This document shows positions 27,660 to 47,130 of a DNA stretch of 64,000 nt, one piece after another. Positions within the stretch are counted from its first letter, which is position 1. Each line of letters begins with the position of its first letter. Made by a program: the position numbers and the translations under genes. Under the pieces are notes generated by a model that was not told where the DNA came from, did not search any database, and saw only the letters and a program-made list of their open reading frames with translations. The stretch lies in NCBI RefSeq assembly GCF_054482595.1, contig NZ_CM137008.1. One strand, written 5' to 3'.

Positions 27660-27671
27660 ATACGCCTCCTG

Positions 27672-28961
27672 TTAAAGGAATAATAATGCAATAAACAATA
27701 CCGTCACAATCATTCCGGGGGCAGTGCGTTTTGCAATTTCAACTGGATTAACTCCAGCCAGACCGGCACAGATAATAGTTGCACCAGCCAACGGAGACAT
27801 GTTTCTCCCCAGCGCAGAAGCCAGCATAACTGCAGCACCCAGAGTATTTGTATCGTAACCAAAATTGTTCGCATGTGGTGTGACAACTTCATTGAATGCG
27901 AATGCAGTCGCATCCCCTGTTCCGGTTATAAGTCCCATCAGGAATGGCCCCAATGTACCGCCCCAGCGGGCAAATTCTGGTGAGTCAATAAGAAATCTGA
28001 TAAACACATCAATGATACCAACAGATTTTAAACCTTCAATGAAAACAGCTGCGGCAATTATGATCCCAAGAATATTTGCATATGATGTCCCCATACCCTC
28101 AAAGAAGCTGGAAACTAATTCTTTGGGATTGGATTTACTGACAATCAGGGCATAAAGACAACCGAGAATCATTGCGGCTGGAACGGTTATTTTAGTCTCT
28201 CCAAGAAAACCAAATTCAGCCAGCATAAGTAATGCTATGGGAAGAAATGGTGCTACAGATTTCAGATAAAAACAGATACCACGGTCAGTGAACTCAACCT
28301 GTGTTTGTTCTGATATGTTTCCTGCAGAATCACATTTTGTTTCTTTTCTTACAATAGCAACAACTGTAAGAATAACAGCACATATTACACCACATGTTAT
28401 CGTAGTCGGAGTATGGAATACAACGAATTCCATTAATGGTGTTTGTGATATTTTAGATATAAATGCATTATGTGCAACACCGGGATTGAGGTAAGCACCT
28501 ATAGTTCCTGAAAGGATAGCTGCCCCGGCTATTGCAGGATGAATACGTGCTGAAATAAGTAATGGTATCAACGTTGCACCAACAGCAGCTGATGCGCCAG
28601 CAGCAGATGGAATCGCGATGCAAATAATAAAACTGACGGTAACCGCAGCAGGAATAAGAAAGATACCAAGACGAGATAATCCTTTCGTTAGAAAATGAAC
28701 CAGGCATGTATCACAACCAGTGAATTTCATAACACAGGCAAAGCCCATACTGGTACAAATAGCCTGAATAAGGCCGGACTCAGTCATTCTGCTTGCAAAT
28801 GCCGAAAATGCGTTTAAAGGTGACATGGCAACTATACATAGCAGAAGACCTGCACCAATTAGTGTCGTTCGTGTGTCGTATCTTTTTATCAAAAGCACAA
28901 CTGTGATTATCAGAATCACACATCCAGTTATCACGTTAAACATGAGATCCACCTCCTTCAA
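27672..28961 (-). CDS. DcuC-family anaerobic carrier-type membrane transporter
   Basis: 429 aa polytopic membrane protein with DcuC-like C-terminal pattern; forms an operon with the M20 gene (12 bp gap). Confidence 0.65.
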   Translation of the reverse strand: MKEVDLMFNVITGCVILIITVVLLIKRYDTRTTLIGAGLLLCIVAMSPLNAFSAFASRMTESGLIQAICTSMGFACVMKFTGCDTCLVHFLTKGLSRLGIFLIPAAVTVSFIICIAIPSAAGASAAVGATLIPLLISARIHPAIAGAAILSGTIGAYLNPGVAHNAFISKISQTPLMEFVVFHTPTTITCGVICAVILTVVAIVRKETKCDSAGNISEQTQVEFTDRGICFYLKSVAPFLPIALLMLAEFGFLGETKITVPAAMILGCLYALIVSKSNPKELVSSFFEGMGTSYANILGIIIAAAVFIEGLKSVGIIDVFIRFLIDSPEFARWGGTLGPFLMGLITGTGDATAFAFNEVVTPHANNFGYDTNTLGAAVMLASALGRNMSPLAGATIICAGLAGVNPVEIAKRTAPGMIVTVLFIALLFL

Positions 28962-29078
28962 AGATAGATAATCTTTACTTTATGTGATTTGCTCAAATAT
29001 TGATCATGAACAAAAAAAACAATTAACCGGGGATACTATTATGATGGAGGTGATAACAGAAAATTATCAGGCGAAAAA

Positions 29079-29996
29079 ATGAAACATATGCCTAAACTTC
29101 AACAAATTAAATTTTTTAATGAAATAGTCCTGTGCGGAAGTTTAAGATCTGCCGCCCGTAAAATGAATATATCTCAGCCAGCATTAAGCAGAACGATAAA
29201 AGAATTGGAGAATGTATTAGGATGTAACCTTCTGATTCGAACAAGGGATGGTATCGTTTTAACAGAAGCTGGAAAGATATTCTCGGTCCATTCACGTATG
29301 ATTCTTGAAGAGGTTGAAACTGCAGCTCTTGAAGTTGCGAAAGTAAATATAGATAACACAGGGAAAGTAGCTTTTGGAATTTCTTCGCTGTTTGGCGTAA
29401 CAATACTGAATAATGTACTTGATAACTTCCGGATGAAATATCCGAAAACGCGTGTGATGATAAGAGAGGGACAGTTGTCTTCCCTTATCCCTTACCTGAG
29501 AGAAGGTGTTCTGGATTTTGCAATGGGTACATTAACAAAAGACATGCCAGTTGGAGATTTTATTGCGGTTGAATTGTTTAACGCACCGTTCACTATAGTG
29601 GCAAGAAAACACCATCCTTTAAGGAACTGTACATCAATTGATGAACTTGCAACTGCAAGATGGGTATTCCCGGAAACTCAAATGGGATACTATCATTATA
29701 TATCCCGTCTTATTCCCTTTGGACATCCTGATGAACCATATGCTCCAATATTTACCGATTCGGTAGTTTGTATTATGAATCTTGTTCTCTATGATGACTA
29801 TATAACGGTTCTCTCCAGAGCAAGGTTACAGGAAGCAAGATTCAAAGAAATATTGTGTTCAATTCCTGTTAAGTATCAACTACCCGTTAGCCAGTACGGG
29901 CTTATTTATCCACGAAAAAGGTTAATGACGGCACCAGCACAAATAATGATTGAATATTTTCAACAAGAGATACAACGATATGACTGGAATGGATGA
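29079..29996 (+). CDS. LysR family transcriptional regulator
   Basis: 305 aa; N-terminal HTH (LRSAARKMNISQPALSRTIKELE) and LysR substrate-binding domain; divergent from the transporter/hydrolase operon. Confidence 0.85.
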   Translation: MKHMPKLQQIKFFNEIVLCGSLRSAARKMNISQPALSRTIKELENVLGCNLLIRTRDGIVLTEAGKIFSVHSRMILEEVETAALEVAKVNIDNTGKVAFGISSLFGVTILNNVLDNFRMKYPKTRVMIREGQLSSLIPYLREGVLDFAMGTLTKDMPVGDFIAVELFNAPFTIVARKHHPLRNCTSIDELATARWVFPETQMGYYHYISRLIPFGHPDEPYAPIFTDSVVCIMNLVLYDDYITVLSRARLQEARFKEILCSIPVKYQLPVSQYGLIYPRKRLMTAPAQIMIEYFQQEIQRYDWNG

Positions 29997-30049
29997 GCAA
30001 TACCCGGAATGATGGTGCCGTTACGGGGAAGTCATCTTCACAGAAATTT

Positions 30050-31801
30050 TCAGTCCATTAGCATTCCGGTATTCGTACAACTTCCTTTGGTGGAGAGTAA
30101 ACAATGACCAGGATGCGATGGACGCTTGACCAGAAAAAACATCACGTTGCTGCATGGCGTGCCAGTGGTCTTACACGCCAGCAATACTGTGAACTCAACG
30201 ATATTCCCTTCACATCACTTCGCGAATGGCCGCAGGATGTCGCAAAAGCTGAACGCCGGGCAAATGAACCGACCGTTCTTCCCGTTCATATTGCGCCACC
30301 ACTGCATGCTGATGTATCACAGCCCGTCACGAATGAGCCAGTCACGCTCTTCCTCCCCGGCGGAGTACGGATGTGCTGTCAGCCGTCACAACTTACCGAT
30401 GTCTTCAGGGCGCTCAAATGTGCTCAGTCCTGATAATGTCTTCATCGCGATTAAACCTGCTGATATGCGCCGGGGCATCGACACACTGACGCAGTATATA
30501 CAGGATGAACTCAGGTCGACATGGCATGAGGGAGCCGCCTTCGTCTTTGTTAACAAAGCCCGTTCGCGTATCAAAGTTCTGCGCTGGGATAAACACGGGG
30601 TGTGGTTGTGTACCCGTCGTCTGCATAAAGGCAGCTTCCGCTGGCCACGTACAAATGACGTTGCCTGGCACCTCACTCCCGACGAGTTTAATTGGCTTAT
30701 TGCCGGTGTTGCCTGGCAGCAAGTTAAGGGACATGACCTGACGAAATGGGTCTGGCTGAATGAAGCTGAACTGCGTGCTATGGCACTTGCCATGGTGCAA
30801 AAAGTCATGTCGGAGAATGCCGAAAAAGAGCGGGAATTACTGGAGAAAAGCCGGCGCATCCAGCTTCTGGACGAAATGCTGAAACTGGTTCGTCAACAGC
30901 GCTTCGGTAAAAATGTGAGACGCTGGCTGGTATGCAACGCTCCCTGTTCGAAGAGGATGTTGATGCCGATATCGCCGCGCTCACCGCACATCTGGATAAA
31001 CTGCTCCCGCAATCCCCTGAAGAAGACGAAAAAGCGCCCCGTTCATGCCCGATACGCAAACCCTTACCGGTCCATCTTCCACGGGTGGAAAAAATTATCC
31101 AGCCGGACACTGACCATTGCCCTGAATGTGACGAGCTGCTGCACTATATCCGTGATGCGGTGAGTGAAAAGCTGGAGTATATTCCCGCTCACTTCGTGGT
31201 GAACCGTTATGTCCGTCCGCAATACAGTTGTCCCTGTTGCCTGAAGGTGTTTAGCGGTGAAATGCCGGCACATATCCTCCCGAAAAGTGCCGTTGAGCCG
31301 TCAGTCATCGCACAGGTGATCATCAATAAATACAGTGACCACCAGCCTCTGTATCGCCAGCAACAGATCTTTGCCCGTTCAGATGTCGGGCTGCCCGTCA
31401 GTTCGATGGCTGATATGGTTGGCGCGTCGGGAGCCACATTATCCCCCCTGGCGGCGTTACTCCATCGCGAGTTGATAAGCCGTCAGGTGGTGCATGCAGA
31501 TGAGACTACCCTGAAGATCCTGAACACGAAGAAAGGCGGTAAATCCTGCTCCTGTTATCTGTGGGCATACGTCAGTGGAGAAAGGACAGGACCGTCAGTT
31601 GTGTGTTTCGACTGCCGGACCGGACGTAGCCATGAGTATCCTGAAAACTGGCTTCAGAGCTGGGTCGGGACACTGGTTGTTGACGGACATAAAGCTTACC
31701 GGACTCTGGCAAACAAAGTGCCGGAGATCACGCTGGCCGGATGCTGGGCCCATGTCAGTCATGCCAGTGAAACTGGTGATGTAGTTCATGTCGATCAGTA
31801 G
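30050..31801 (+). mobile_element. second IS66-family element of a different subtype, with frameshifted and 3'-truncated tnpC
   Basis: tnpA 30104..30433, tnpB frame about 30430..30770 (inside track ORF 30126..31163), tnpC pieces up to 31801 (coiled-coil then CPECDELL zinc finger, HADETTLKIL, AGCWAH), split over frames and ending prematurely. Ends approximate. Confidence 0.75.
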
Positions 31802-32419
31802 AGTGTTGGCACGCAGCAATACGCTGTCGTGGCTTGTTGTGGCCAACATGGTCAGAATGTCCTCTGTGAGATTTATGAAGGTTGTGCGAATGCGGGGGAA
31901 TCTGCTGAACGGTGCTTTCAGAGCTGGCCTGCTACGGGATACCCGGGATTACCTGCGAGGTAATGGGCTTCCGGATCGCACACCTCACGACGATCGCAGG
32001 CGAAATCACTGAATGCTCTTTGAGTATATCTTCGCTGTCAGGTAACCAATGAACCCGTTCCACATCCCGGGAGCTTCTGGTACTGCGCCGCTTCGTCCGG
32101 TGACACAAAGCTCTTACATTGCCCATGGCATCCATAATCAACTGCTCCAGAACAGGGGCATCGAAATACGCCTTTCGGGCACATCACACCACTTTATATT
32201 CCGGCATATCAGGAGCATAGTTCCGGGTCAGAAGTACCGGTCATCAGATCGAGCAGGATGTCAGTCAATGCTGCCCCCGGGATTAACTATGCAGAAACAG
32301 TCCTGAGACACAGACAAGATCAGAGACGACGCACGCGTGTGGTTGATTGACACCAACGTGCGGGTTCAGCGAATCAGCGATCACGGTGCGATTTCGCGCC
32401 ACAGTACACAATCAATAGT

Positions 32420-32710
32420 AAGCGTAAACTGACCGCCGTATGTAGCCATTAAGCCTGTATTGGTAACGTAGGTGCCCACTTTTTCAACTAGTGGACACCT
32501 GTTATGGAACAGAAAATATTATCCGCAGAACCCCGCAGAACATTTTCAAATGAGTTTAAACTTCAAATGGTTAAACTGGCTTCACAACCAGGAGCCTCTG
32601 TTGCCCGTATTGCCAGGGAACACGATATCAATGATAATCTTCTGCTCAAATGGCTCTGGCTGATCGGCCTTCCCCCACTTTTTACGCGAGGTGATTATGA
32701 AGATCAATGA
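32420..32710 (+). mobile_element. IS66-family left end with a 5' fragment of tnpA
   Basis: GTAAGCGTAAACTGACCGCC-type terminus near 32420, then ORF 32504.. encoding MEQKILSAEPRRTFSNEFKLQMVKLASQPGASVARIAREHDINDNLLLKWL, which then loses similarity. Confidence 0.5.
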
Positions 32711-32908
32711 CTAGCCGTCGAACCGTGTGCATGAACTGCTGCACTGAAACTTCTCAGCTGTAAAGTAATCCTTACGCTACGTACTTCTCGGAGCGCTTAC
32801 GATTAATCAGATGCAGTCCTGACTGGAAGAAAGAAAAATGGAAAAATAAGAGGAATTAATATATTCCACGTTCCTGAAATCCTGGAGGATATTAATGTCA
32901 TCAAAATA

Positions 32909-33860
32909 TTAGCGAACGATAATCCCTAACAAAATACCCAGTACGCCAAAGTCAGCATCACTGGAGGTGGTGTTAGCAAAACCAATATCATCCAGCACAG
33001 GCAATAAGAATACTGGCGGGAAGGTAATAGGCAAGCCTTGAGCGAAGGCACCCAAAATCGCACCACGACGTCCCCCCGTTGCATTACCGAATACCCCTGC
33101 AGTTGCACCTACGAAGAAGTGCGGCACCATACCAGGAATAATCACGATCATGTTCAGCAGATACAACGTGAACATACCGATTAAACCTGCAGCAAAGCTG
33201 CTCAGGAAACCAACCAGTATAGCGTTAGGTGCGTAAGGGAAGACGACCCGGGAATCGAGAGCTGGTCTGGCATTCGGAACCAGCTTGTCTGAAATACCTT
33301 TGAATGCCGGGACAATCTCCGCAATCACCATGCGCACACCCTGCAGAATGATGTAAACACCTGCTGCGAAGGTAATAGATTGCATGATGGAGAACATGAA
33401 CCAGTTTTTACCACCACTAAGCTCTTTCACCACATCTGCACGCGCAAACAGGCACGTCACCAGGAAAATTATGCTCATGGTAAAAGAGATAGCAACCGGC
33501 GTGTCGCGCAAGAACAGCAGACTTTTCGGCACATTCATGTCTTCAGTCGAGTGGTCTTTATTACCAAACTTGCTGCCGATGAAACCGGCCAATACATAAG
33601 ATAATGTTGAGAAGTGGCCGATGGCAACGTCATCAGAACCGGTCACTTTCTTCATGTACGGATGCGCAATAGCCGGGAAAAAGACCATTGCCACGCCAAC
33701 AACCAAAGAGCCAACGGCTATAAGCGTAATGCCGGTCATGCCTGCTGTTGCCAGAATTACCGCTACCATCATCGACATAAACAACGTGTGATGACCGGTC
33801 AGGAAGATAAATTTCCACGGTGTGAAACGGGCAATCAGAATGTTGATAACCATCAGAAAC
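32909..33860 (-). pseudogene. PTS EIIC (ascorbate-type, UlaA/SgaT/SgcC family) gene, N-terminally truncated
   Basis: About 315 aa of polytopic membrane protein with UlaA/SgaT-like C-terminal region; first about 20 codons of the track ORF are junk overlapping the sgcE fragment; opposite in orientation to the adjacent sgcE/sgcR. Confidence 0.65.
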
Positions 33861-33861
33861 G

Positions 33862-34221
33862 CTGGACTATCCCTCGGAAACGTTAGCTGAGATCCGCCAT
33901 ACCGGCGCACGAGCCGGGCTGGCATTTAATCCGGCGACCCCAATCGACGCCTGGCAATATCTGGCGTCTGAGCTGGACGGCGTGATGGTGATGACCTGTG
34001 AGCCCGATGGGCACGGACAGCGGTTTATTCCCTCTATGTGCGAGAAAATCCAAAAAGTACGCACGGCTTTTCCTCAGACCGAGTGCTGGGCCGACGGTGG
34101 AATTACGCTGGCGGCAGCACAGCAACTGGCTGCAGCCGGGGGGCAGCATATGGTGATTGGGCGCGTCTTGTTCTTTTCATCTGACTATCGCGCGACCTTA
34201 GTTCAATTCGCCACCCTGTAA
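33862..34221 (+). pseudogene. sgcE: pentulose-phosphate 3-epimerase gene, 3' fragment
   Basis: In-frame translation upstream of ORF 33982..34221 reads ...LALNPATPIDAWQYLASELDGVMVMTCEPDGHGQRFIPSMCEKIQKVRTAFPQTECWADGGITLAAAQQLAAAGG..., matching the SgcE C-terminal half; N-terminal half absent. Confidence 0.75.
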
Positions 34222-34237
34222 GAGGAGATTGTTTCTG

Positions 34238-35020
34238 ATGAGCCAACAGAGACCTGACCGTATCAAACAGATGCTGCACTACCTGTGGCAACATCGTCAC
34301 CTCTCCACACAGCAGGCCATGGAGCTTTTTGGCTATGCGGAGGCGACTGTCCGTCGTGATTTTCAGTATATTGCCAACCAGTACCCAGGCATGATCCGCG
34401 GTCACGGTTGTCTCGACTTCGACGACAGTACTGACGACAAAGAGTACGTTTTCGATGTGAAACGTACATTGCAATCTGTGGCGAAGAGAGAAATAGTCGC
34501 CCTTGCCCGAACGATGATCAAAGATGGCGACTGCTTTTTTCTCGACTCCGGCTCAACCTGCCTCGAACTGGCGAAATGCCTGGCCGATGCACGGGTGAAG
34601 GTCTCCTGCAACGACATTAAAATCGCCAATGAGCTGGGCTGTTTTCCCCATGTGGAAAGCTATATTATCGGTGGACTGATTCGCCCGGGGTATTTTTCGG
34701 TAGGAGAGAGTCTGGCGCTGGAGATGATCAATGCCTTTTCCGTAGAACGTGCGTTTATCTCCTGCGATGCGCTGTCGCTGGAGACGGGGATCACCAATGC
34801 CACCATGTTTGAGGTCCGGGTGAAAACACGGATTATTCAACGCTCGCGTGAAGTTATTCTCATGGCCGAACACTCAAAATTTGATGCCGTTGAGCCGCAT
34901 GCTGTAGCAACACTCTCATGTATTAAAACGATCATTAGTGACAGCGGGTTACCTGAGACTATTGCACAGCGTTATCAGCGAGCCGGATGTCAGTTGTTTT
35001 TACCTCATTCAATAAAGTGA
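34238..35020 (+). CDS. sgcR: DeoR family transcriptional regulator
   Basis: Recognised as SgcR starting at MSQQRPDRIKQMLHYLWQ... Confidence 0.85.
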   Translation: MSQQRPDRIKQMLHYLWQHRHLSTQQAMELFGYAEATVRRDFQYIANQYPGMIRGHGCLDFDDSTDDKEYVFDVKRTLQSVAKREIVALARTMIKDGDCFFLDSGSTCLELAKCLADARVKVSCNDIKIANELGCFPHVESYIIGGLIRPGYFSVGESLALEMINAFSVERAFISCDALSLETGITNATMFEVRVKTRIIQRSREVILMAEHSKFDAVEPHAVATLSCIKTIISDSGLPETIAQRYQRAGCQLFLPHSIK

Positions 35021-35392
35021 TAGGTAAGTTCGTTCGAGAGGGATTTCAAGCAAAAACAATCAATGGCACCCAATAGAAAATATTGGCGATGTGCTCGAAC
35101 GAATAAAGAAGCCCTATGCGCAATCCACACGCTACGATGTTGCAACAACACTCCATCTACTTTTTATTCTCATTCACTAAATGTGGCTGTTCTGGATTCA
35201 TTATTCAAAGTGTGTACAAGATCACATTTAATCACTTCATTACGGTTCAGCATGCTGAACAAAGCATATTTTCCACTATGTAATGCCGATACCATTTATT
35301 CCATGAGCAAGGAGGAGCCATTATGGTTCGCAAAGGGGGTGATGCTGCCAACTTACTGATTTAGTGTATGATGGTGTTTTTGAGGTGCTCCA

Positions 35393-35668
35393 GTGGCTTC
35401 TGTTTCTATCAGCTGTCCCTCCTGTTCAGCTACTGACGGGGTGGTGCGTAACGGCAAAAGCACCGCCGGACATCAGCGCTATCTCTGCTCTCACTGCCGT
35501 AAAACATGGCAACTGCAGTTCACTTACACCGCTTCTCAACCCGGTACGCACCAGAAAATCATTGATATGGCCATGAATGGCGTTGGATGCCGGGCAACAG
35601 CCCGCATTATGGGCGTTGGCCTCAACACGATTTTACGTCACTTAAAAAACTCAGGCCGCAGTCGGTAA
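35393..35668 (+). CDS. insA: IS1 InsA
   Basis: 91 aa [43 protein letters not shown]... Confidence 0.95.
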
Positions 35669-36090
35669 CCTCGCGCATACAACCGGGCAGTGACGTCATC
35701 GTCTGCGCGGAAATGGACGAACAGTGGGGCTATGTCGGGGCTAAATCGCGCCAGCGCTGGCTGTTTTACGCGTATGACAGGCTCCGGAAGACGGTTGTTG
35801 CGCACGTATTCGGTGAACGCACTATGGCGACGCTGGGGCGTCTTATGAGGCTGCTGTCACCCTTTGACGTGGTGATATGGATGACGGATGGCTGGCCGCT
35901 GTATGAATCCCGCCTGAAGGGAAAGCTGCACGTAATCAGCAAGCGATATACGCAGCGAATTGAGCGGCATAACCTGAATCTGAGGCAGCACCTGGCACGG
36001 CTGGGACGGAAGTCGCTGTCGTTCTCAAAATCGGTGGAGCTGCATGACAAAGTCATCGGGCATTATCTGAACATAAAACACTATCAATAA
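35587..36090 (+). CDS. insB: IS1 InsB frame (expressed as InsAB' by frameshifting)
   Basis: 167 aa track ORF containing the InsB sequence. Confidence 0.9.
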
Positions 36091-36319
36091 GTTGGAGTCA
36101 TTACCGAATCAACCTATGGTGCGGTATGTTTAAGTATGCCGGTATTCAATATGTATAACAGAGTTAACTATGCAATCTCACTTTCTGGCGATCCGGTAAT
36201 TTATTCAGGAAATAAGATAGACAGCTATCTGGAGTTGCTCCGGAAATGCACAGGGCAAATATCATATGGGCTGGGATACAGAAACGAAAATGAACATTTA
36301 CGAAAAGGAAACTGAGGTA

Positions 36320-37225
36320 ATGAAAAAATTCAGCGGCATTATTCCACCGGTATCCAGCACGTTTCATCGTGACGGAACCCTTGATAAAAAGGCAATGCGC
36401 GAAGTTGCCGACTTCCTGATTAATAAAGGGGTTGACGGGCTGTTTTATCTGGGTACCGGTGGTGAATTTAGCCAGATGAATACAGCCCAGCGCATGGCGC
36501 TCGCCGAAGAAGCTGTAACCATTGTCGACGGGCGAGTGCCGGTATTGATTGGCATCGGTTCCCCTTCCACTGACGAAGCGGTCAAACTGGCGCAGCATGC
36601 GCAAGCCTGCGGCGCTGATGGTATCGTCGCCATCAACCCCTACTACTGGAAAGTTGCGGCGCGGAATCTTGACGACTACTACCAGCAGATCGCCCGCAGC
36701 GTCACACTGCCGGTGATCCTGTACAACTTTCCGGATCTAACCGGTCAGGACTTAACCCCGGAGACCGTGAAACGTCTGGCACTGCAAAATGAAAATATCG
36801 TCGGCATCAAAGACACCATCGACAGCGTCGGCCATCTGCGCACGATGATCAACACCGTTAAGTCTGTACGTCCGTCATTTTCGGTATTCTGCGGCTTCGA
36901 CGACCATTTACTGAATACCCTGCTGCTGGGCGGCGATGGCGCGATATCCGCCAGCGCTAATTTTGCTCCGGAACTCTCTGTCGGTATCTACCGCGCCTGG
37001 CGCGAGGGCGATCTGGCAACTGCCGCCACCCTGAATAAAAAGCTCCTGCAACTGCCCGCGATTTACGGCCTTGAAACGCCGTTTGTCTCACTGATCAAAT
37101 ACAGCATGCAGTGCGTGGGGTTGCCGGTGGAGACATATTGCCTGCCGCCGATTCTTGACGTCTCAGAAGAAGCCAAAGAAAAAGTCCACGCACTGCTGGC
37201 CGCGCAGGGCATTTTATCGGACTGA
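36320..37225 (+). CDS. yjhH: DapA/NanA-family aldolase (2-dehydro-3-deoxy-D-pentonate aldolase type)
   Basis: Recognised as YjhH from MKKFSGIIPPVSSTFHRDGTLDKKAMREVADFL; the track ORF has an 18-codon upstream extension. Confidence 0.85.
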   Translation: MKKFSGIIPPVSSTFHRDGTLDKKAMREVADFLINKGVDGLFYLGTGGEFSQMNTAQRMALAEEAVTIVDGRVPVLIGIGSPSTDEAVKLAQHAQACGADGIVAINPYYWKVAARNLDDYYQQIARSVTLPVILYNFPDLTGQDLTPETVKRLALQNENIVGIKDTIDSVGHLRTMINTVKSVRPSFSVFCGFDDHLLNTLLLGGDGAISASANFAPELSVGIYRAWREGDLATAATLNKKLLQLPAIYGLETPFVSLIKYSMQCVGLPVETYCLPPILDVSEEAKEKVHALLAAQGILSD

Positions 37226-37235
37226 GGAGAAGATC

Positions 37236-39203
37236 ATGTCTGTTCGCCATATTTTTGCTGACGAAAGTCGCGATATCTACACCGTCAGAACCCACGCCGA
37301 TGGCCCTGACGGAGAACTGCCGCTTACGGCGGAAATGCTCATCAACCGCCCGAGCGGGGATCTGTTCGGGATGACCATGAATGCCGGAATGGGCTGGTCC
37401 CCAGACGAACTGGATCGGGACGGTATTCTACTGCTCAGCACGCTGGGAGGGTTACGCGGGGCAGACGGTAAGCCCATCGCGCTGGCGCTGCACCAGGGTC
37501 ACTACGAGCTGGATATCCAGATGAAAGCGGCCGCGGAGGTCATCAAAGCGAACCGTGTCCTGCCCTATGCCGTGTATGTTTCCGATCCGTGCGACGGACG
37601 AACTCAGGGTACGACGGGTATGTTTGACTCGCTACCGTACCGTAATGACGCCGCCATGGTGATGCGTCGTCTAATCCGCTCTCTGCCCGATGCGAAAGCC
37701 GTCATTGGCGTGGCGAGCTGCGACAAGGGACTTCCGGCCACCATGATGGCACTTGCCGCGCAGCATGACAAAGCGACGGTGCTGGTGCCCGGTGGCGCGA
37801 CGCTACCCGCAAGGGATGGGGAGGATAACGGCAAGGTGCAGACCATCGGCGCCCGCTTCGCCAATGGCGAGTTATCGCTACAGGATGCCCGCCGTGCGGG
37901 TTGTAAAGCCTGCGCCTCCTCCGGCGGCGGCTGTCAATTTCTGGGCACCGCCGGGACATCGCAGGTCGTAGCCGAAGGATTAGGACTGGCCATCCCGCAC
38001 TCAGCACTGGCCCCTTCCGGCGAACCGGTGTGGCAGGAGATAGCCAGAGCCTCCGCGAAGGCGGCGTTGAACTTATGTAAACAAGGCATCACCACCCGGG
38101 AAATACTCACCGATAAAGCGATTGAGAATGCGATGACGGTCCATGCGGCGTTCGGTGGTTCAACAAATCTGTTGCTGCATATTCCGGCGATTGCCCATCA
38201 GGCCGGCTGCCATATTCCAACCGTTGACGACTGGATCCGCATCAACAAGCGGGTGCCCCGACTGGTAAGCGTACTCCCCAATGGTCCGGTTTATCACCCG
38301 ACAGTGAATGCCTTCATGGCGGGAGGTGTGCCGGAGGTGATGCTGCATCTTCGTAGTCTGGGATTGCTGCATGAAGACGTGATGACGGTCACCGGCAGCA
38401 CGCTGAAAGAAAACCTGGACTGGTGGGAGCATTCCGAACGGCGTCAGCGGTTCAAACAGCTTCTGCGCGAACAGGAGCAGATCGATGCCGACGAGGTGAT
38501 CATGTCGCCACAGCGGGCACGGGAGCGCGGCCTGACCTCAACGATCACTTTCCCGGTGGGCAATATTGCCCCGGAAGGGTCGGTTATCAAATCCACCGCC
38601 ATCGATCCCTCGGTGATTGATGATCGGGGCATCTATTACCATAAAGGCGTGGCGAAGGTTTATCTGTCCGAGAAAAGCGCGATTTACGATATCAAGCACG
38701 AGAAGATTAAAGCGGGCGATATTCTGGTCATCATCGGCGTTGGCCCTTCCGGCACCGGGATGGAGGAAACCTACCAGGTCACCAGCGCCCTGAAACATCT
38801 GTCCTATGGCAAGCATGTTTCACTGATCACCGATGCGCGTTTCTCGGGTGTTTCCACGGGAGCCTGTATCGGCCACACAGGGCCAGAAGCACTGGCCGGA
38901 GGGCCAATCGGTAAATTACGCACCGGAGATATTATTGAAATTAAAATTGATTGTCGCGAGCTTCAGGGCGAAGTCAATTTCCTCGGAACCCGTAACGATG
39001 AAACATTACCCTCACGGGAGGAGGCCACCGCAATATTAAACGCCCGACCCAGTCATCAGGATTTACTTCCTGATCCTGAGCTGCCCGATGACACCCGACT
39101 CTGGGCGATGCTCCAGGCGGTAAGCGGCGGGACATGGACGGGTTGTATTTATGATGTAAATAAAATCGGCGCGGCCTTGCGCGATTATATGAATAAGAAC
39201 TGA
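37236..39203 (+). CDS. yjhG: IlvD/EDD-family dehydratase (D-xylonate dehydratase type)
   Basis: 655 aa from MSVRHIFADESRDIYTVRTH...; recognised as YjhG. Confidence 0.9.
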   Translation: MSVRHIFADESRDIYTVRTHADGPDGELPLTAEMLINRPSGDLFGMTMNAGMGWSPDELDRDGILLLSTLGGLRGADGKPIALALHQGHYELDIQMKAAAEVIKANRVLPYAVYVSDPCDGRTQGTTGMFDSLPYRNDAAMVMRRLIRSLPDAKAVIGVASCDKGLPATMMALAAQHDKATVLVPGGATLPARDGEDNGKVQTIGARFANGELSLQDARRAGCKACASSGGGCQFLGTAGTSQVVAEGLGLAIPHSALAPSGEPVWQEIARASAKAALNLCKQGITTREILTDKAIENAMTVHAAFGGSTNLLLHIPAIAHQAGCHIPTVDDWIRINKRVPRLVSVLPNGPVYHPTVNAFMAGGVPEVMLHLRSLGLLHEDVMTVTGSTLKENLDWWEHSERRQRFKQLLREQEQIDADEVIMSPQRARERGLTSTITFPVGNIAPEGSVIKSTAIDPSVIDDRGIYYHKGVAKVYLSEKSAIYDIKHEKIKAGDILVIIGVGPSGTGMEETYQVTSALKHLSYGKHVSLITDARFSGVSTGACIGHTGPEALAGGPIGKLRTGDIIEIKIDCRELQGEVNFLGTRNDETLPSREEATAILNARPSHQDLLPDPELPDDTRLWAMLQAVSGGTWTGCIYDVNKIGAALRDYMNKN

Positions 39204-39309
39204 AAGCAAAAATAAAAACATCCAGACACCTGAATTATCCGGTTACGCATTATTCATCCTGTGCGCAGCCGGATAATGACGGGTCGTTACCCTATGATGA
39301 GAGGACGTT

Positions 39310-40659
39310 ATGCCACTAATTATCGTTGTGGCAGGGATTGCTTTACTCCTGCTTTTAACCATAAAAATTAAGCTTAATACGTTTGTTTCGTTAATTATTG
39401 TCTCGATTGCTGTCGCCATCGCCAGTGGTATGGATTTGAGTAAAGTCGTCACCTCAGTCGAATCCGGACTTGGCGGTACGCTGGGCCATATTGGTTTGAT
39501 ATTTGGGTTCGGTGTTATGCTCGGTCGCTTGCTGGCCGATGCGGGGGGGGCGCAGCGAATAGCGCTGACCATGCTGAATTATTTCGGGAAAAATAAACTT
39601 GACTGGGCAGTGGTCTGTTCGGCGTTTATTGTCGGTATCGCACTTTTTTTCGAAGTCGGTTTAATTCTTCTGGTACCTATTTTATTCGCTATTGCCCGTG
39701 AAGCAAAAATATCACCGATGTTTATGTGTGTGCCGATGCTTTCCGGTTTGCTGGTCGCACACGGTTTTTTGCCGCCGCACCCCGGCCCGACAGTAATCGC
39801 CAGAGAATATGGTGCTGATGTAGGATTGGTACTGATATACGGTATCATTGTCGGCATTCCAACCTTTATTCTTTGCGGCCCGGTATTGAATAAATTCTGC
39901 CAGCGCATTATTCCGGAAGCCTTTAAAAAAGAGGGGAATATAGCCTCTCTCGGCGCGACCCGCCGGTTCAGCGAAAGCGAAATGCCTGGCTTTGGGATCA
40001 GTTTTCTCACGGCAATGCTGCCGGTGATCCTGATGGCGGTTGTCACCATCATCCAGATGACTCATGCCAAAAGTGCCGCGGATTCAGGCTTATTCTACAA
40101 CGTGCTACTGTTCTTAGGTAATTCGACGATCGCCATGCTGATTTCACTGCTGTTCGCGATCTATACCATGGGCCTGGGGCGCGGGAAAACAATCCCTGAC
40201 CTGATGGATTCTTGCGGAAAAGCTATCGCGGGTATTGCCGGTCTGCTGCTGATTATCGGTGGTGGTGGTGCATTCAAGCAAGTTCTCATCGACTCTGGCG
40301 TTGGTCAGTATATTTCCACCCTGGTTTCGGGTATGGATATTAACCCGATCCTGATGGCCTGGGGCGTGGCCGCATTCCTGCGTATTTGTCTGGGTTCAGC
40401 CACCGTCGCGGCGATCTCTACCGCCGGTCTGGTCATCCCATTGTTGGCAGTACATCCCAATACCAACCTGGCCTTGATTACGCTGGCTACCGGTGCCGGA
40501 TCCTGTATTTGTTCTCACGTTAACGATGCCAGTTTCTGGATGATTAAAGACTTTTTTGGCCTGACCACCAAAGAAACGCTGTTATCCTGGACGCTGATGT
40601 CCACACTCTTATCCATCAGTGGGCTGATTTTTATTCTGCTCGCCAGCTTAGTTTTATAA
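39310..40659 (+). CDS. yjhF: GntP-family permease
   Basis: 449 aa polytopic membrane protein, recognised as YjhF. Confidence 0.85.
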
Positions 40660-40809
40660 TCGGGTTCTTGCCAGTGAGCCAACCTGTTGTTCACTGTCCC
40701 CCATAATTTAGTGAGTGACGGCAACCGTCTGCACGGTGACGAATCGCTGGCGATCAAAAAGGGGCGATATTGAACCGTCGATTATGCTTGTTGAGTGTAC
40801 TCTCAGTAA

Positions 40810-40844
40810 TACTGTAAAGCCGGAGCATGTCTCCGGCTTTACAG
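40810..40844. repeat. perfect 15 bp-stem inverted repeat (actgtaaagccggag / ctccggctttacagt, 5 nt loop)
   Basis: Seen directly in the yjhF-yjhU intergenic region; no T-run follows on either strand. Coordinates approximate. Confidence 0.4.
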
Positions 40845-41005
40845 TATGGGGGAACAGCGGGAGATCGCTCAAATGGTATGCTGGTTTATTTCATGTAAAA
40901 GAATAAAATATCTGTATAAAATCATGCCACTGGCAATCTGCATCAACTCTCCGGGTAAACAGGGTTAAGATGAGCATTTCCCCGGTTTAATACAGGTATA
41001 CAAAA

Positions 41006-41992
41006 GTGGATAGAGATCAAACAAACAGCAGCCTGTTCAATGATGATCCCGTACTTCATGCAACATGGCTGTACTATCAGGAAGGCAAAAGCCAGACTGA
41101 AGTTGCAGCTATCATGGGGGTGTCCCGCGTCACGGTTGTCAAATACCTGCAAACAGCCCGGGAAAATGGACTGGTTCATATCAACCTGGATGTGAATGTC
41201 TTTGGCTCTATCGACGCTGCTTTGCAAATTCGCGATAAATTCAATCTCCTGAGAGTGATCATCGTGCCGGATGGCGAACATGCCGGAAAACGTGATGATA
41301 CAAAGCTGATGCGGACTCGCCTTTCACGTGCCGGTGGCATGTATCTGAATCAGGTGATTGAGAATGGTGATGTGCTGGGGGTTGCCTGGGGAAGAACAAT
41401 CCATCAGATGAGCAAAACCATGACGCCGAAGTCATGTAAAAATGTCACCGTTATACAGATGCTCGGTTCCATGCCATCTCAGCCAGACCTGACGATCATT
41501 GAATCCTCATCGCAAATCGCCTACAAGCTTTCAGGCCGTGTCGCTTCGCTGCACGTGCCCGCCGTGGTATCAAGCGCCAGACTGGCCATGGAGTTACAGG
41601 CAGAGCCTATTATTCGATCGAATTTTGACGTTCTGACTCGCTGTACGAAAGCCTTTTTTGTCGTGGGTAACACGCTTGATGAAAATCCCCTGATTCGGGT
41701 GGGCGTGCTGAATAAGAAGGAAATGCAGACGTATCGAGATTTAGGCGCAGTAGGTGTCATTTGTGGCCGCTTCTATGACAAGGAAGGGATGCCCGTCGTG
41801 GCTGATGTTGACCAGCGTATTCTGGGAATCAGTCTGGCTCAGTTAAGGCAGATTGAACGGAAGATCTTTCTTGCTGGTGGCGAAAGAGGCTATGACGCAA
41901 CGTTGGGTGCCTTGCTGGGAGGATATGTCACTGACCTGATTGTTGATGAAGGAACGGCAGAGTTTTTGCTGGCGTGTGAATTACCACACTAA
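41006..41992 (+). CDS. yjhU: SorC/DeoR-type sugar-binding transcriptional regulator
   Basis: 328 aa, N-terminal HTH (SQTEVAAIMGVSRVTVVKYL) and SorC-like sugar-binding domain; recognised as YjhU. Confidence 0.8.
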   Translation: MDRDQTNSSLFNDDPVLHATWLYYQEGKSQTEVAAIMGVSRVTVVKYLQTARENGLVHINLDVNVFGSIDAALQIRDKFNLLRVIIVPDGEHAGKRDDTKLMRTRLSRAGGMYLNQVIENGDVLGVAWGRTIHQMSKTMTPKSCKNVTVIQMLGSMPSQPDLTIIESSSQIAYKLSGRVASLHVPAVVSSARLAMELQAEPIIRSNFDVLTRCTKAFFVVGNTLDENPLIRVGVLNKKEMQTYRDLGAVGVICGRFYDKEGMPVVADVDQRILGISLAQLRQIERKIFLAGGERGYDATLGALLGGYVTDLIVDEGTAEFLLACELPH

Positions 41993-42032
41993 AAGAATGA
42001 ACAACTGCCCCATGTGGATATGGGGCAGGATT

Positions 42033-43037
42033 TTATTGATTAGCGGCGATAATAAGAACAATACCCACAATGTATGAAATAAACATAGTCAGCAGCAGTT
42101 TATTGGTTCCGGCTGGCGCACTGGCAAATTCTCTCCAGATGAAGACTCCCCAGATCACGGCAATCATTGTGGCACCCTGTCCCAGACCGTAGGAAATGGC
42201 ATAACCCGCCTGACCAGACGCAATCAAACTGAATGCCAGACCGACACACCAAATCATACCGCCCAGCCAGCCGCAAACATGATCCCGTAAACTCCCGGAA
42301 AAATACATTTTCCTGTAGACCGGTTCTCCTGAAATAGGCTTTTTCATGACCAGCGTGTTAAGGACAAAGTTCGACAAAAACAGCCCCACTGCAAACAGAA
42401 CAAGTGCTGAGTACGGCGTCATCAGACCGCTGGCAGGCTGGCTGAAATTGTCAGACATGGAGTCCGCCAGGAAGCGGAAAAACCATCCCATGATGATACC
42501 CGCAAGAATGGCAGTGATGAGGCCTTTGTTACGGCGAGATTTATCCGCCTCCTGCGTGACACGGCCATAGGCTATCGCGGTAAAAATAATGGCGATCACA
42601 ACGCAGGCGACACCGAGGAACAGAATGAGCGGATCGCCCTGCGGATTGCCGATATAGGTGGTGATCACACCCAGAGCCAGTGCCAGCCCCACCCCCACAG
42701 GAAAAGCTACCGCCATACCGGCAAGATTAATAGAAGCCACCAGAAGAATATTGGAAATATTGAAGATAATCCCTGCCAGTATTGCCGACATCAGACTACT
42801 GCTGCTCGCCTGCTGAATATCAGGTATAAAGCTGCGACCGGCTTCGCCCATAGAACCCAGAGTGAAGGCAAATAACAAAGAACACAGCAATAATCCAATT
42901 GAATAATCCCAATAGAATAGAGGGAACTCCCATTTTTTATTACTGACAAGTTTAGTTGTATTCGCCCATGAACCCCAGCAAATCATGGTAATAAAACACA
43001 TTATTATGGCGACAGCATACGATTCCACGATAAACAT
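42033..43037 (-). CDS. DMT-superfamily sugar transporter (glucose/ribose porter-like)
   Basis: 334 aa, about 10 TM segments, resembles GlcU/RbsU-type sugar uptake proteins; family call tentative. Confidence 0.55.
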   Translation of the reverse strand: MFIVESYAVAIIMCFITMICWGSWANTTKLVSNKKWEFPLFYWDYSIGLLLCSLLFAFTLGSMGEAGRSFIPDIQQASSSSLMSAILAGIIFNISNILLVASINLAGMAVAFPVGVGLALALGVITTYIGNPQGDPLILFLGVACVVIAIIFTAIAYGRVTQEADKSRRNKGLITAILAGIIMGWFFRFLADSMSDNFSQPASGLMTPYSALVLFAVGLFLSNFVLNTLVMKKPISGEPVYRKMYFSGSLRDHVCGWLGGMIWCVGLAFSLIASGQAGYAISYGLGQGATMIAVIWGVFIWREFASAPAGTNKLLLTMFISYIVGIVLIIAANQ

Positions 43038-43140
43038 AAATAACTCCTTGTGGTAGTTACAATCAATCGTTGTGGACAGAGGGCATAACAGCCATTCCTC
43101 GAATGGCTGTTATATGTTATTAATTAAAATAAAGCTGTAA

Positions 43141-43782
43141 TTACGCTTTCAAACCATACGTTTTGAATTTTTCAAGAACGATGGTCATTTCGGCTTCAGA
43201 CAGAACGGGAACATCGTGATGTAATCCGCCACATTTGATGTATAAATCAGCCAGCGTCTCAGTTTCACCCGCCAGCCACAACGTCTTTTCCAGCGTGACG
43301 TCCATGGCCAGCATACCGTGGTGCTGCATCAGTAAGGACTTACTTTCTCTGATTCCTTGAGATACACTGTCGGCCAGTTCAGGGCTGCCAAAGGTATAAT
43401 AGGGAATACAGGGAATATGATCCGTCCCCGATACCGCCACCATATAATGAATAGCCGGAATTGAATGATTATGTATTGCCACCGCCGTGGAATTCACCGC
43501 ATGCGTATGTATGACAGCATTCAATTCTGGTCTGGCTTTATAACACGCCAGATGAAATAGCCATTCACTTGATGGTATTTTACCCGCTTCAGGTATTCCC
43601 TTATCGTCTACAAAGACAATCATGTCCGGCGTCATCTTTGAATAAGCGATCCCACTCGGTGTAATCAACATGCCACCGGTATATCTGGCACTCACATTAC
43701 CTGATGTTCCTTGATTCAGACCTGACGCATTCATTTCCCGACAAATGGAAATGATATTTTCTGCTAACTTAATCCTTTCCAT
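43141..43782 (-). CDS. class II aldolase/adducin family protein (MtnB / L-fuculose-phosphate aldolase-like)
   Basis: 213 aa with conserved His-rich metal site (HTHAVNSTAVA, LMQHHGMLAMD). Confidence 0.8.
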   Translation of the reverse strand: MERIKLAENIISICREMNASGLNQGTSGNVSARYTGGMLITPSGIAYSKMTPDMIVFVDDKGIPEAGKIPSSEWLFHLACYKARPELNAVIHTHAVNSTAVAIHNHSIPAIHYMVAVSGTDHIPCIPYYTFGSPELADSVSQGIRESKSLLMQHHGMLAMDVTLEKTLWLAGETETLADLYIKCGGLHHDVPVLSEAEMTIVLEKFKTYGLKA

Positions 43783-43812
43783 TACTGCTCCTTAACAGAA
43801 GTGATCGTCGTT

Positions 43813-44928
43813 TTAATGCAGCTCGTCCTGGAGTGCTTTACTCTTCAGGTCAGCAAACATATCCGCCAGAGCTGACTTACTGGCAGCACAGACTCCCCGT
43901 TCAGTAATGAGGCCGGTAATGTATCGGGCAGGCGTGACGTCGAAAGCGTAGTTCCCACAACGGGTTCCTTCAGGGGCGGTATTGACCCAGCTCAATTCTC
44001 CCTGAGTATTTATCCCATAGACATGGGACTGCTCTTTTCCGTCACGTTGCTCAATCGGAATGGTTTTTCCGTCCTCGATAGTCCAGTCAATAGTGGGAGA
44101 AGGTAACGCGACGTAGAAGGGAACATGGTTATCATGGGCCGCCAGCGCCTTAAGATAGGTACCAATTTTATTACAGACATCCCCTCTGGCCGTGGTTCGA
44201 TCGGTCCCCACTATACAGAGATCAACGTCACCGTGTTGCATCAGGTGGCCACCCGCATTGTCGGCAATCAGGGTGTGAGGAATACCGTGTGAACCCAGTT
44301 CAAATGCCGTGAGTCCACCCTGATTACGTGGCCGCGTTTCATCCACCCAGACGTGAACAGGGATTCCGTTTTCATGCGCTTTATAGATGGGAGAAAGCGC
44401 GGTTCCCCAGTCTACAGTCGCCAGCCAGCCTGCGTTACAATGTGTCAGGATATTGACCACACTCCCGGCCGATTTTTTCTGGGCTATTTCGCGGATGACT
44501 TCTGCACCATGTAATCCAATTTGTTCACACAACGCGACATCTTCCTCGGCAATTTCTGCCGCCAGCGCCCAGGCCACATCCTTGCGCTCTGATACACAGA
44601 GATCCTTCAGTGTGGCTATCATCCTGTCGAGAGCCCATTTGAGGTTAATTGCAGTTGGTCGGGTTTTGATAAGAAGGTCATAGTAACGCTGCAGACCTAC
44701 GTCACTGGCATTGTGGTTCATTCCCAGTGCGATACCATATGCCGCAACGACACCAATAAGCGGGGCGCCACGAACCCACATCTCCTGAATAGCCGCAGCG
44801 GCCATTTCCGCAGAGGTAAGCGCCACCACTTCAAACTTAAAAGGCAGCTTAGTCTGATCGATGATCTCTACCGCTTTTCCATCCCCGGAAACCCAGACCG
44901 TTCGGTAGTGTTTACCTTTAATATTCAT
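43813..44928 (-). CDS. S-methyl-5-thioribose-1-phosphate isomerase family (MtnA/eIF-2B-like)
   Basis: 371 aa; MtnA-like sequence pattern throughout. Confidence 0.85.
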
Positions 44929-44937
44929 AATGACCTC

Positions 44938-46197
44938 TTACTTAACCTTCGCAGACTGGATGACGGAGTCCATATTTTTAAACTGGCGGGCATTGACAAT
45001 AAGATCGCGCGCCATGGTCAATGCACGTCGTTCACATTCTGCGCGAAGCTCTGTATTTTCAATCTGTTTCAGCTCGGCAACGCCAGCAAAACCAATGATC
45101 CGGCGATTCATTTCCATGCCGGCATTCACCAGGGAATCTTCAAGCAGCGTGGCAAAAAACTGATCCTGTGCGTCCTCAAGAGCGGCCCTGTTCTGTTGAT
45201 ACATTTCTGTCGGCCACGCGTCACCCTGTGTTTTGTTGTCCCAGAGCTGGCGGAACTCCCGGGTGAAAACTGACCAGGTGTGGACAATCTGCTGAAGTAG
45301 CCATTCCTGATAGTCAGCGCGACGTTGCTCATTTGCATCCCACCCAGGGCGTGAGAAGAACGCCAGCAGGAGGTTGCCAATATAGTTGCCGATATCAAAC
45401 GCCATTGGTCCCATGAAACCGAACTCCGGATCAATCACTTTGGTATCCGTGTCGGTCACCATGATTGAGCCTGAATGAAGGTCACCATGTAACAATGCCT
45501 GCGCTTCTGTCATAAATTTGTACTTATAACGCATGGCAACCTGGAGCATCTCTACATCAGCCCAGGCCTTATGGACGGCATCGTCCAGCTCAGGAGAAGT
45601 CCAGTTATTCCGTTCCGCGTTGTAATAGGGCTCTGTGAAGATCAGATCTTCCGTAATTTTGCACAGCTCATGATTTAACGCGAACTCAGCAGTAAGCGCT
45701 TTTTTCTGTTCTGCTGACATGCCAATGTCAGACGTATTAAAGAGAGTCTGTGCTAAAAATCTGCCGATATCTTCAGCTAGCTTAGGGAATTTTTTACCGT
45801 TAATCAGTCCCTTACGCAGAATTACGTGAGGCGTCAAATACTCCATGGCAAACAGTGCCATTTCCGGGTCATAAAAATAGACCTGGGGAATCAGTGTGTG
45901 ACCCGCGTACTTGGCTTCCTGACATAAGACGTTGTACTCAAAGCCCGCACGGCTCAGAGATAAAGGCCATCCTTCGCCCCCTGCACGAAGCCAGGGCAGA
46001 GCTTGTTTTACAATGATGGTTTTATGTGTCCCCTTAACGATAAACACCATGTTCAGGTTTCCGTCCCCCACTTCTGAAACTTTCCACTCTTCTGGTAACC
46101 CTCCCGGTTCGCATGAAGGGGTCAGTCTGGACGAGAGATAACCAGGCAGCGTGTCACATGTCAGCGGCTTGTAACCTGATGGAATTGAATCCGTCAT
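44938..46197 (-). CDS. S-methyl-5-thioribose kinase family (MtnK-like)
   Basis: 419 aa; aminoglycoside-phosphotransferase-like kinase with MtnK-type motifs (HGDLHSGSIMV, DPEFGFMGP). Confidence 0.85.
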   Translation of the reverse strand: MTDSIPSGYKPLTCDTLPGYLSSRLTPSCEPGGLPEEWKVSEVGDGNLNMVFIVKGTHKTIIVKQALPWLRAGGEGWPLSLSRAGFEYNVLCQEAKYAGHTLIPQVYFYDPEMALFAMEYLTPHVILRKGLINGKKFPKLAEDIGRFLAQTLFNTSDIGMSAEQKKALTAEFALNHELCKITEDLIFTEPYYNAERNNWTSPELDDAVHKAWADVEMLQVAMRYKYKFMTEAQALLHGDLHSGSIMVTDTDTKVIDPEFGFMGPMAFDIGNYIGNLLLAFFSRPGWDANEQRRADYQEWLLQQIVHTWSVFTREFRQLWDNKTQGDAWPTEMYQQNRAALEDAQDQFFATLLEDSLVNAGMEMNRRIIGFAGVAELKQIENTELRAECERRALTMARDLIVNARQFKNMDSVIQSAKVK

Positions 46198-46711
46198 AAC
46201 AGTTCTCCTTGTCTACACAGAATGATAACTGACTTATCATATGGCAACTATACTTTATCATGTGTAAAGTAATTTGTGATGCATGTAGATTTTTTGAACT
46301 GGAGAAAATTAAAAATAATGTTGTATGGAGTCATGATCTTTACAGGAATTAGTAGGGTGCATTCCTGTTATTTATATAAAATTCATTGTATTACATAAAA
46401 ATGACGGTGCTGCGCGGGGAATTGTCTCGGGCAATCTTAGACGAAAGGAAGTATTGAAGTGACAGAATAATCTACATTTTTTATACATGTGTATTTTTCT
46501 GTTGTCTTTTGTTTTTAGCGTATGGTGTTTTTATGCCGATGTCTAATAGACAGATAGATTCGAGGGCCAACAGCCCCATTATCATGATGGAGCAACAGAG
46601 GTGAGTCTAACGTTTCCGTACTTCTTATCGATCGGCACTAACAATCCTTTGTGATAACGGTATTCCCACACAGAGAAACCCACGTACCTGAATAAAAAAA
46701 AGATTACTGGT

Positions 46712-47130
46712 GTGGAAATGGGATTAACAGATTATGCCATCAAATCGGATGGTAATGAGGTCAATAATCCTCGTCATCTCATTAACGTCAACTGTAATCT
46801 GCGACGCAAATTAGCCAGCATGATGAATAACAAACACAATCTGGCAAGAGCGTTAGGTGATGCTGATTGGCACGGCTTTATCAACAAACTGGAGTACAAG
46901 GCAGCCGAAAAAGGCGTTCATCTGGTAAAAATCGACCAGTAGTTTGTCTGTTCGAAAAGCTGCTATTGTTGTGGTTACAAAATGTCGCTTCAAAAACGGA
47001 TCTGGCGATGCCCTGAATGCGGTGTTGAACATGACCGGGATATAAATGCGGCAATCAACATAAAACTTAAAGACATACAGGAATTAAAGGCGGCGGGCCC
47101 CGTCGTCTCTGTCTATGGAGGAGCTGCGTA
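46712..47130 (+). pseudogene. IS200/IS605-family TnpB (OrfB) C-terminal fragments
   Basis: ORF 46712..46942 then a frame encoding MSLQKRIWRCPECGVEHDRDINAAINIK (TnpB zinc-finger end); no N-terminal part. Confidence 0.6.

Follow-up and report, generated by a model that had tools for sequence, protein, structure and literature searches.

A 64,000-nucleotide stretch of contig NZ_CM137008.1 (NCBI RefSeq assembly GCF_054482595.1; the whole stretch is called the window here) was found to carry, in a large genomic island next to the tRNA-Phe gene pheV, a copy of the sgc and yjh genes known from the KpLE2 element at leuX in Escherichia coli K-12. In this copy a full-length IS1 has taken the place of 564 bp of yjhI, which codes for the IclR-type regulator of the D-xylonate genes yjhH and yjhG. 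The yjhI::IS1 deletion allele is private to this strain and is its only strain-specific change, and it is predicted to have silenced yjhH and yjhG, which are themselves still intact. In the explanation that we favor, a mosaic leuX-type module in the pheV island would have been joined illegitimately to an older island gene, would have received a foreign yjhH-yjhG patch, and would only recently have lost yjhI through an IS1-mediated deletion. We give this explanation as a whole a probability of about 75%.

The IS1 deletion in yjhI and its likely effect

Gene names were taken from the list of open reading frames (ORFs), compared with the annotation made by the Prokaryotic Genome Annotation Pipeline (PGAP) for 100%-identical DNA in two genomes, O157:H16 Santai and GTEN_97, and with NCBIfam models. 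The IS1 lies at 35338-36105 on the plus strand, has the full length of 768 bp, is IS1A-like (99.6% identity to the IS1A annotated in E. coli B) and shares its direction of transcription with yjhH. Its insA gene (35393-35668) and insB' frame (35587-36090) are both intact and have the A-run frameshift site, imperfect terminal inverted repeats are present, and it is the single IS1 copy in the window. As had been remarked in an earlier note on this DNA, the element has no target duplication; the 8-9 bp repeat that marks a simple insertion is absent, since the nine bases on its left (cgcaaaggg) and on its right (gaatcaacc) are unrelated. This absence points to a secondary rearrangement and is no argument against the identity of the element as IS1.

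Comparison with the undeleted allele showed what had been lost. The 564 bp replaced by IS1 correspond to positions 8430-8993 of the Santai locus, inside yjhI (8415-9203), and their loss removed codons 6-193. The same note had described yjhI as missing exactly where IS1 sits; the place was correct, but the gene is gutted rather than gone, as codons 1-5 (MVRKG; 15 bp, 35323-35337, found by alignment to the undeleted allele) and codons 194-262 with the stop codon (210 bp, 36106-36315, tblastn identity of 100% over residues 194-262) remain on the plus strand. With the lost part went the helix-turn-helix DNA-binding domain and the greater part of the effector domain. Upstream of the shorter remnant, the 302-bp sgcR-yjhI spacer with the yjhI promoter region (35021-35322, plus strand, 39% G+C) is intact and 100% identical to Santai and GTEN_97. 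The Santai match extends at 100% over window positions 26909-35337 and, with one mismatch, over 36106-47992, so that both deletion junctions fall exactly at the IS1 termini and the flanks are collinear with those of the relatives. A contiguous ancestral segment is thus gone, starting exactly at the end of an intact element, as in an adjacent deletion mediated by an insertion sequence, and the suspicion that the missing duplication marked an IS1-associated deletion was well founded. No other yjhI-like sequence was found by tblastn in the 64 kb.

Among complete genomes GTEN_97 is the closest: two alignments with the window, of 35,337 and 12,685 bases, show one mismatch each (about two single-nucleotide polymorphisms in 48 kb). 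Its yjhI is intact; the IS1 event is therefore recent. Of the 5,426 complete E. coli genomes compared, not one has an IS1 with both of these junctions, and the 11 related genomes with this allele of the locus have one yjhI each. IS1 prefers AT-rich target DNA, and yjhI with its spacer (39-40% G+C) fits this preference. Independent IS1 copies were also seen in other strains: SW070910, isolate AHB24 and E. coli B have them in the sgcR-yjhI spacer, and ET490, EC5931, F1022 and K-12 (IS1F) at other sites of the module. IS1 is known to form adjacent deletions, the marks of which are an intact element, no duplication and the loss of ancestral DNA exactly from the end of the element. It is likely, then, that IS1 inserted into the AT-rich yjhI, and that an adjacent deletion by intramolecular transposition followed, which would have left one intact IS1 and removed the central codons.

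The effect of this loss can be predicted from work on K-12. In reporter studies YjhI was an auto-induced activator of yjhIHG, an "activated-activator" design, in which extra yjhI raised the activity of the yjhI promoter about 50-fold with 2-keto-3-deoxy-D-xylonate as the effector (PMC13279387). It was also established by ChIP-exo (chromatin immunoprecipitation with exonuclease digestion) that YjhI is bound at yjhG, yjhH and yjhI (PMC8464067), and the paralogous regulator XynR neither cross-regulates nor substitutes for YjhI (PMC13279387). The gap between yjhI and yjhH is only 4 bp, and the genes are therefore co-transcribed. With IS1 now standing between the intact yjhI promoter region and yjhH, the operon has no functional upstream activator gene, only the two remnants. 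IS1 is polar in both orientations. Since YjhI is an activator and IS1 is polar, the prediction is that neither xylonate nor 2-keto-3-deoxy-xylonate induces yjhH and yjhG, though both genes are still intact. An earlier proposal was that yjhHG could be deregulated once yjhI is lost; it is contradicted by the role of YjhI as an activator (PMC13279387), and a non-inducible operon is to be expected. The loss of yjhI would be a first step in the decay of the operon, while yjhU (mtnR) and the operon of the dihydroxyacetone phosphate (DHAP) shunt farther downstream would be untouched by the IS1 event. In practice, the intact-looking yjhH-yjhG pair should not be taken as an inducible xylonate pathway, as its activator is gone.

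Other origins of the IS1 junctions have to be weighed. Two IS1 copies of the same orientation might have entered yjhI, and homologous recombination between them might have removed the 564-bp interval together with one copy. The end product would match what is found, namely one IS1, unlike flanks and an internal deletion, and the neighborhood has been hit by IS1 repeatedly, with many IS1 copies in the related genomes. Nevertheless, this route requires two insertions within 564 bp where an adjacent deletion requires one, and no relative with this allele was found, among the 5,426 genomes, to have a yjhI with a single IS1 or a pair of them, so that we regard it as unlikely. The precursor expected for the adjacent deletion, a simple IS1 insertion at one of the junctions, was likewise found in none of these genomes and may be unsampled. 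That the replacement is an artefact of assembly is suggested by the uniqueness of the allele and by the frequent misassembly of IS copies. We give this almost no weight, because both junctions coincide to the base with the ends of IS1, the flanks align with those of the relatives in perfect collinearity, and the collapse of a repeat would not excise unique sequence precisely at the IS ends.

With respect to regulation, proteins of the IclR family are frequently repressors, the paralogue XynR among them, and IS1 is oriented towards yjhH and has a promoter of its own, detected by a consensus scan at 35345-35372. Loss of YjhI might therefore derepress yjhH-yjhG or make them constitutive, perhaps helped by read-through from IS1 or by a hybrid promoter. 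Against this stands the role of YjhI as an activator, and a yjhI-promoter reporter was not induced in a strain without xynR and yjhI (PMC13279387). The consensus scan, which is a weak test, found no outward promoter at the right end of IS1 or on the plus strand of the yjhI remnant. IS1 is, moreover, classically polar, and derepression is thus improbable. Related to it is a rewiring in which IS1 or a cryptic promoter in the 210-bp remnant would give low constitutive, activator-independent expression of the lower Dahms pathway; we consider this quite improbable, but were it true, it could be favored by selection where a niche offers pentonates or related 2-keto-3-deoxy acids. Several points do weigh against the explanation that we favor, in which an adjacent deletion silenced the operon. 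An adjacent deletion and recombination between two IS1 copies give the same product in the sequence. The activator role is known for the K-12 allele of yjhI (97.6% DNA identity), mostly from plasmid reporters. Some transcription without an activator could come from an unrecognized promoter in the remnant or from IS1-promoter read-through, and the view taken here is limited to 64 kb, while a second yjhI could lie elsewhere in the genome.

A leuX-type module of mosaic origin at pheV

The island is anchored at a tRNA-Phe gene at 59626-59701 on the minus strand, found with both ARAGORN and Rfam; an Rfam scan for structured RNAs in the region returned this tRNA only. Beyond the tRNA lie yqgA, speC and nupG, with a 98.4% match to the pheV-yqgA-speC-nupG region of K-12, and the tRNA is therefore pheV. 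Next to it, at 58163-59428 on the minus strand, is an intact tyrosine integrase gene with 97.2% identity to the Phe-island integrase of strain 10 (NZ_CP048330.1). The block from the truncated sgcE to yjhU (33854-41992) lies 17.6 kb from pheV. In K-12 MG1655 the order is yjhU-yjhF-yjhG-yjhH-yjhI-sgcR-sgcE-sgcA and onwards on a single strand, and the window has the same order read on the opposite strand. Blastn against K-12 was collinear for window positions 33854-35343 and 36106-42090; together with the K-12 annotation this bears out the earlier observation that the sgcE fragment, sgcR, yjhH, yjhG, yjhF and yjhU keep the order and orientation of KpLE2.

Homology to leuX islands was found to run past the right limit of 41992 given before, up to 46646. 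On this comparison, the 12.8-kb segment 33854-46646 is a module homologous to the tRNA-distal part of leuX islands of the KpLE2 type, situated inside a large mosaic pheV island. Gene order and orientation are those of the KpLE2-type sgc/yjh module, while the anchor is pheV instead of leuX and near-identity to the common allele is not kept throughout. Four units make up the module: a sgc remnant (truncated sgcE and sgcR), the xylonate operon yjhI-yjhH-yjhG, yjhF, and mtnR (yjhU) facing mtnK, mtnA, ald2 and a transporter gene. All complete genes of the block translate without internal stops. On the plus strand these are sgcR (34238-35020, 260 codons, 96.6% identity to K-12 sgcR), which codes for a DeoR-family regulator and is left without the remaining sgc operon genes; yjhH (36320-37225, 301 codons), a 2-keto-3-deoxy-pentonate aldolase gene with a DapA-family match; yjhG (37236-39203), a rare divergent allele of the D-xylonate dehydratase gene that scores 1208 bits with TIGR03432 against a cutoff of 808; yjhF (39310-40659), which codes for a GntP-family permease (TIGR00791, 653 bits); and yjhU (41006-41992, 328 codons).

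Identity to the K-12 and leuX copies is patchy along the module. In addition to sgcR, it is high in the sgcR-yjhI spacer (97%), yjhF (98.9%), yjhU (99%) and the DHAP-shunt genes (96-98%), and falls to 91% in yjhH and 86.5% in yjhG. A three-way scan of 700 informative sites in Santai, K-12 and strain 10 gave mainly K-12-type sites from sgcR to yjhI and on to about 36631, with the sgcE fragment mixed, strain-10-type sites from about 36655 to 39296, and K-12-type sites again from about 39375. This defines a recombination patch of the Phe-island type (36655-39296, plus strand) with breakpoints within 36631-36655 and 39296-39375. Among the 5,426 genomes the yjhH-yjhG allele of the window has matches of at least 99% in 10, of 95-99% in 12, of 90-95% in 4 and of 80-90% in 1,597. 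Two allele classes of yjhH-yjhG about 14% apart are thus seen in E. coli, a common one (1,597 of 5,426) and a rare one (about 26), and in the cases examined the rare class was tied to Phe-tRNA islands. Strain 10, whose yjhH-yjhG is 98.9% identical to that of the window, carries the sgcXBCQAER-yjhIHGF cluster complete, in an island that adjoins tRNA-Phe.

Judged from the informative sites, the module is a recombinant of two old lineages of one gene set, with a backbone of the K-12/leuX type and a patch of the Phe-island type. The patch of about 2.7 kb would have come by homologous recombination with the rare sgc-yjh lineage of another Phe-tRNA island. Gene conversion of yjhH-yjhG by the paralogues yagE-yagF was ruled out, as their identity is 64% throughout. 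The proposal that modules are exchanged between tRNA-associated islands is in this way borne out, and the block clearly illustrates how two diverged copies of one metabolic module, each in a different tRNA island, can recombine homologously.

To describe the block as relocated, as was done earlier, is an oversimplification. A recent move from leuX to pheV within this lineage would agree with the KpLE2 gene order and with the lack of a leuX copy in strains with the block, but we find it highly improbable. Identity to leuX copies is 86.5-99% and patchy; the junction between the truncated sgcE and the neighboring enzyme IIC gene described below is common to 11 genomes, whose sources on several continents were ducks, mink, chickens and humans; the divergent allele also occurs within a complete sgc-yjh cluster in another Phe-tRNA island; and no leuX island with a module of more than 99% identity, the divergent yjhG allele and an empty scar was present among the genomes searched. 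The patchy identity and the sharing of the module by 10-11 other genomes without a leuX copy argue for an old, separately evolving lineage and not for a recent move.

At its left end the module meets a gene for the IIC component (EIIC) of an ascorbate-type phosphotransferase system (32909-33853, minus strand). This gene lacks its first ~100 codons and keeps the C-terminal ~314 (profile positions 101-414 of 415 in NCBIfam NF006919), and it is annotated by PGAP as a pseudogene in identical DNA. The sgcE fragment that forms the left end of the module (33854-34221, plus strand) keeps the C-terminal ~121 codons (NF005944, profile positions 90-210 of 210). The two genes, each without its 5' end, meet head to head at 33853/33854. 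This junction shows about 1 bp of microhomology, and it has no IS end. The EIIC gene had been described as truncated and inverted against the sgcE fragment; truncation and opposite orientation are indeed seen, but an inversion event is not shown, and "inverted" holds for relative orientation only. The junction occurs in 11 of the 5,426 genomes only, and intact EIIC homologues (96-98% identity) belong to an EIICBA-LacI module found in various islands. The best reading of the junction is that an illegitimate join, or a deletion, brought two island modules together; the leuX-like module would have joined the pre-existing EIIC gene by illegitimate recombination. A mechanical ORF at 32909-33925 (minus strand) results from it, as the truncated EIIC frame runs 72 nt into antisense sgcE to an ATG, giving a chimera of 338 codons.

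Isolate F1022 has an intact EIIC gene on the strand of yjhU and downstream of it, and a circle closed within EIIC and sgcE would account for the junction. An origin of this kind, by circular permutation or through a translocatable unit, was dropped, because EIICBA-LacI is a separate module that occurs with ribokinase, permease and mutarotase genes in unrelated contexts, and also because the proximity of EIIC in F1022 stems from IS1 and IS2 events. The junction is explained just as well by a plain illegitimate join or deletion.

The DHAP shunt and the wider island

It was established that YjhU is MtnR, the repressor of the DHAP shunt (PMC12632272), and yjhU is for this reason grouped functionally with the adjoining DHAP-shunt operon and not with the xylonate genes. 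Together with 449 bp of upstream promoter region, the operon occupies 42033-46646 on the minus strand and consists of mtnK (44938-46197, MTRK model match), mtnA (43813-44928), ald2 (43141-43782, match to a fuculose-phosphate aldolase model) and the transporter gene (42033-43037), all intact and collinear with leuX islands. Recent papers place the operon "invariably" at the end of the leuX island, and about 250 bp upstream were reported to be essential for its promoter (PMC12632272). The window has all four operon genes, and the convergent mtnR, in intact form, and the 449 bp kept upstream of mtnK, where an IS200/IS605-type TnpB remnant cuts the region off, exceed the required length. The locus does not have the reported position at the leuX end, as it stands in the pheV island. 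At least 8 of the 5,426 complete genomes share the arrangement of the window up to the tRNA, with the DHAP shunt in a Phe-tRNA island. The DHAP shunt and MtnR are thus not confined to leuX islands, and a small set of non-K-12 lineages has them in a Phe-tRNA island.

Several other features of the island were recorded. A second ompC-like porin gene, borne by the island (47396-48508), adjoins an ISEc16 copy just beyond the right end of the leuX-like module and is kept in all island relatives examined. In the tRNA-distal part of the island (window 1-32900), citrate-lyase genes (citCDEFXG) form a cluster together with an acnB-like gene; there are also a malX/malY-like pair, which an "enterotoxin" gene follows, and several decayed copies of IS66. 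No second copy of the tRNA-Phe 3' end was found within the 64-kb window, and the far end of the island therefore lies beyond position 1. A phosphoethanolamine-transferase pseudogene adjoins the integrase gene both in the pheV island (56653-58100) and in leuX islands such as that of ET490 (88-93% identity), and this common pseudogene suggests that the tRNA-proximal arms of pheV and leuX islands may share an ancestor. The integrases of the two kinds of island are far less alike, with a partial match of about 75% only.

The setting of the island varies among its relatives. In the window and in strain 4FM the normal order yqgA-pheV-island is seen, and SM107 has a pheU flank. In GTEN_97 (NZ_CP113493.1, 812000-924000) a near-identical island abuts a tRNA-Phe gene with the upstream flank of pheU (dicD-dsbD-cutA-aspA), while its far side has the kps capsule locus and yghD/gspL, the downstream flank of pheV. 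These flanks indicate a probable chromosomal inversion between pheV and pheU with its breakpoint at the tRNA gene, and hopping of the island between pheU and pheV in GTEN_97 is ruled out by the yghD/gsp far flank, which belongs to the pheV side. A plasmid origin was rejected, since two of the five matched records (4.9 Mb and 0.83 Mb) are too large for ordinary plasmids. A K-12-like yjhI-yjhH-yjhG-yjhF set, about 93% identical to the window, was found on a 53-kb plasmid of Citrobacter freundii (NZ_CP099223.1), and the xylonate module is therefore also plasmid-borne outside Escherichia.

Comparison with known systems

Mosaic tRNA islands, adjacent deletions by IS1 and inactivated regulators are all known, and what is seen here belongs to these kinds throughout. 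New are the details, namely this yjhI::IS1 deletion allele, the mosaic copy of the module in a Phe-tRNA island and the position of the DHAP shunt outside leuX. Their value lies mainly in annotation and in the interpretation of strain phenotypes, and the current understanding of IS1, of tRNA islands and of these pathways is unchanged.

Compared with the KpLE2/leuX segment, sgcXBCQAER-yjhIHGF-yjhU in K-12 and with the DHAP-shunt operon added in extraintestinal pathogenic E. coli such as ATCC 25922, the window is alike in genes, order and orientation from midway through sgcE up to 449 bp upstream of mtnK, with the regulators YjhI and MtnR in equal positions. It differs in its anchor at pheV, in the absence of sgcXBCQA and half of sgcE, in the destruction of yjhI, in the ~14% divergent yjhH-yjhG allele, and in the region upstream of mtnK, which the IS200/IS605-type remnant cuts at 449 bp, whereas 799 bp were reported for leuX islands. 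The cluster of strain 10 and of about 10 similar genomes resembles the window in yjhG (98.6%), yjhH (96%) and the integrase (97.2%), and in its location in tRNA-Phe-adjacent islands. Unlike the window, it has the whole sgc operon and lacks yjhU and the DHAP shunt, and its yjhI (88.7%), spacer (83.8%) and yjhF (90.7%) differ from those of the window, where these are of the K-12 type.

The yjhI deletion is similar to the classical IS1 adjacent deletions in gal and lac, reportedly those of Reif and Saedler in 1975, in that an intact IS1 is kept, the deletion starts from its exact end and no flanking duplication is present. It is unlike them in that the ancestor with a simple insertion is not seen here, and the intermediate would have to be supposed. 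The XynR-yagEFG system of the CP4-6 prophage, which is absent from the window, is a paralogous pathway and likewise consists of a dehydratase, an aldolase, a transporter and an IclR-type regulator. Its DNA is only 64% identical, and the two regulators act without crosstalk and in opposite ways, XynR as a repressor and YjhI as an activator.

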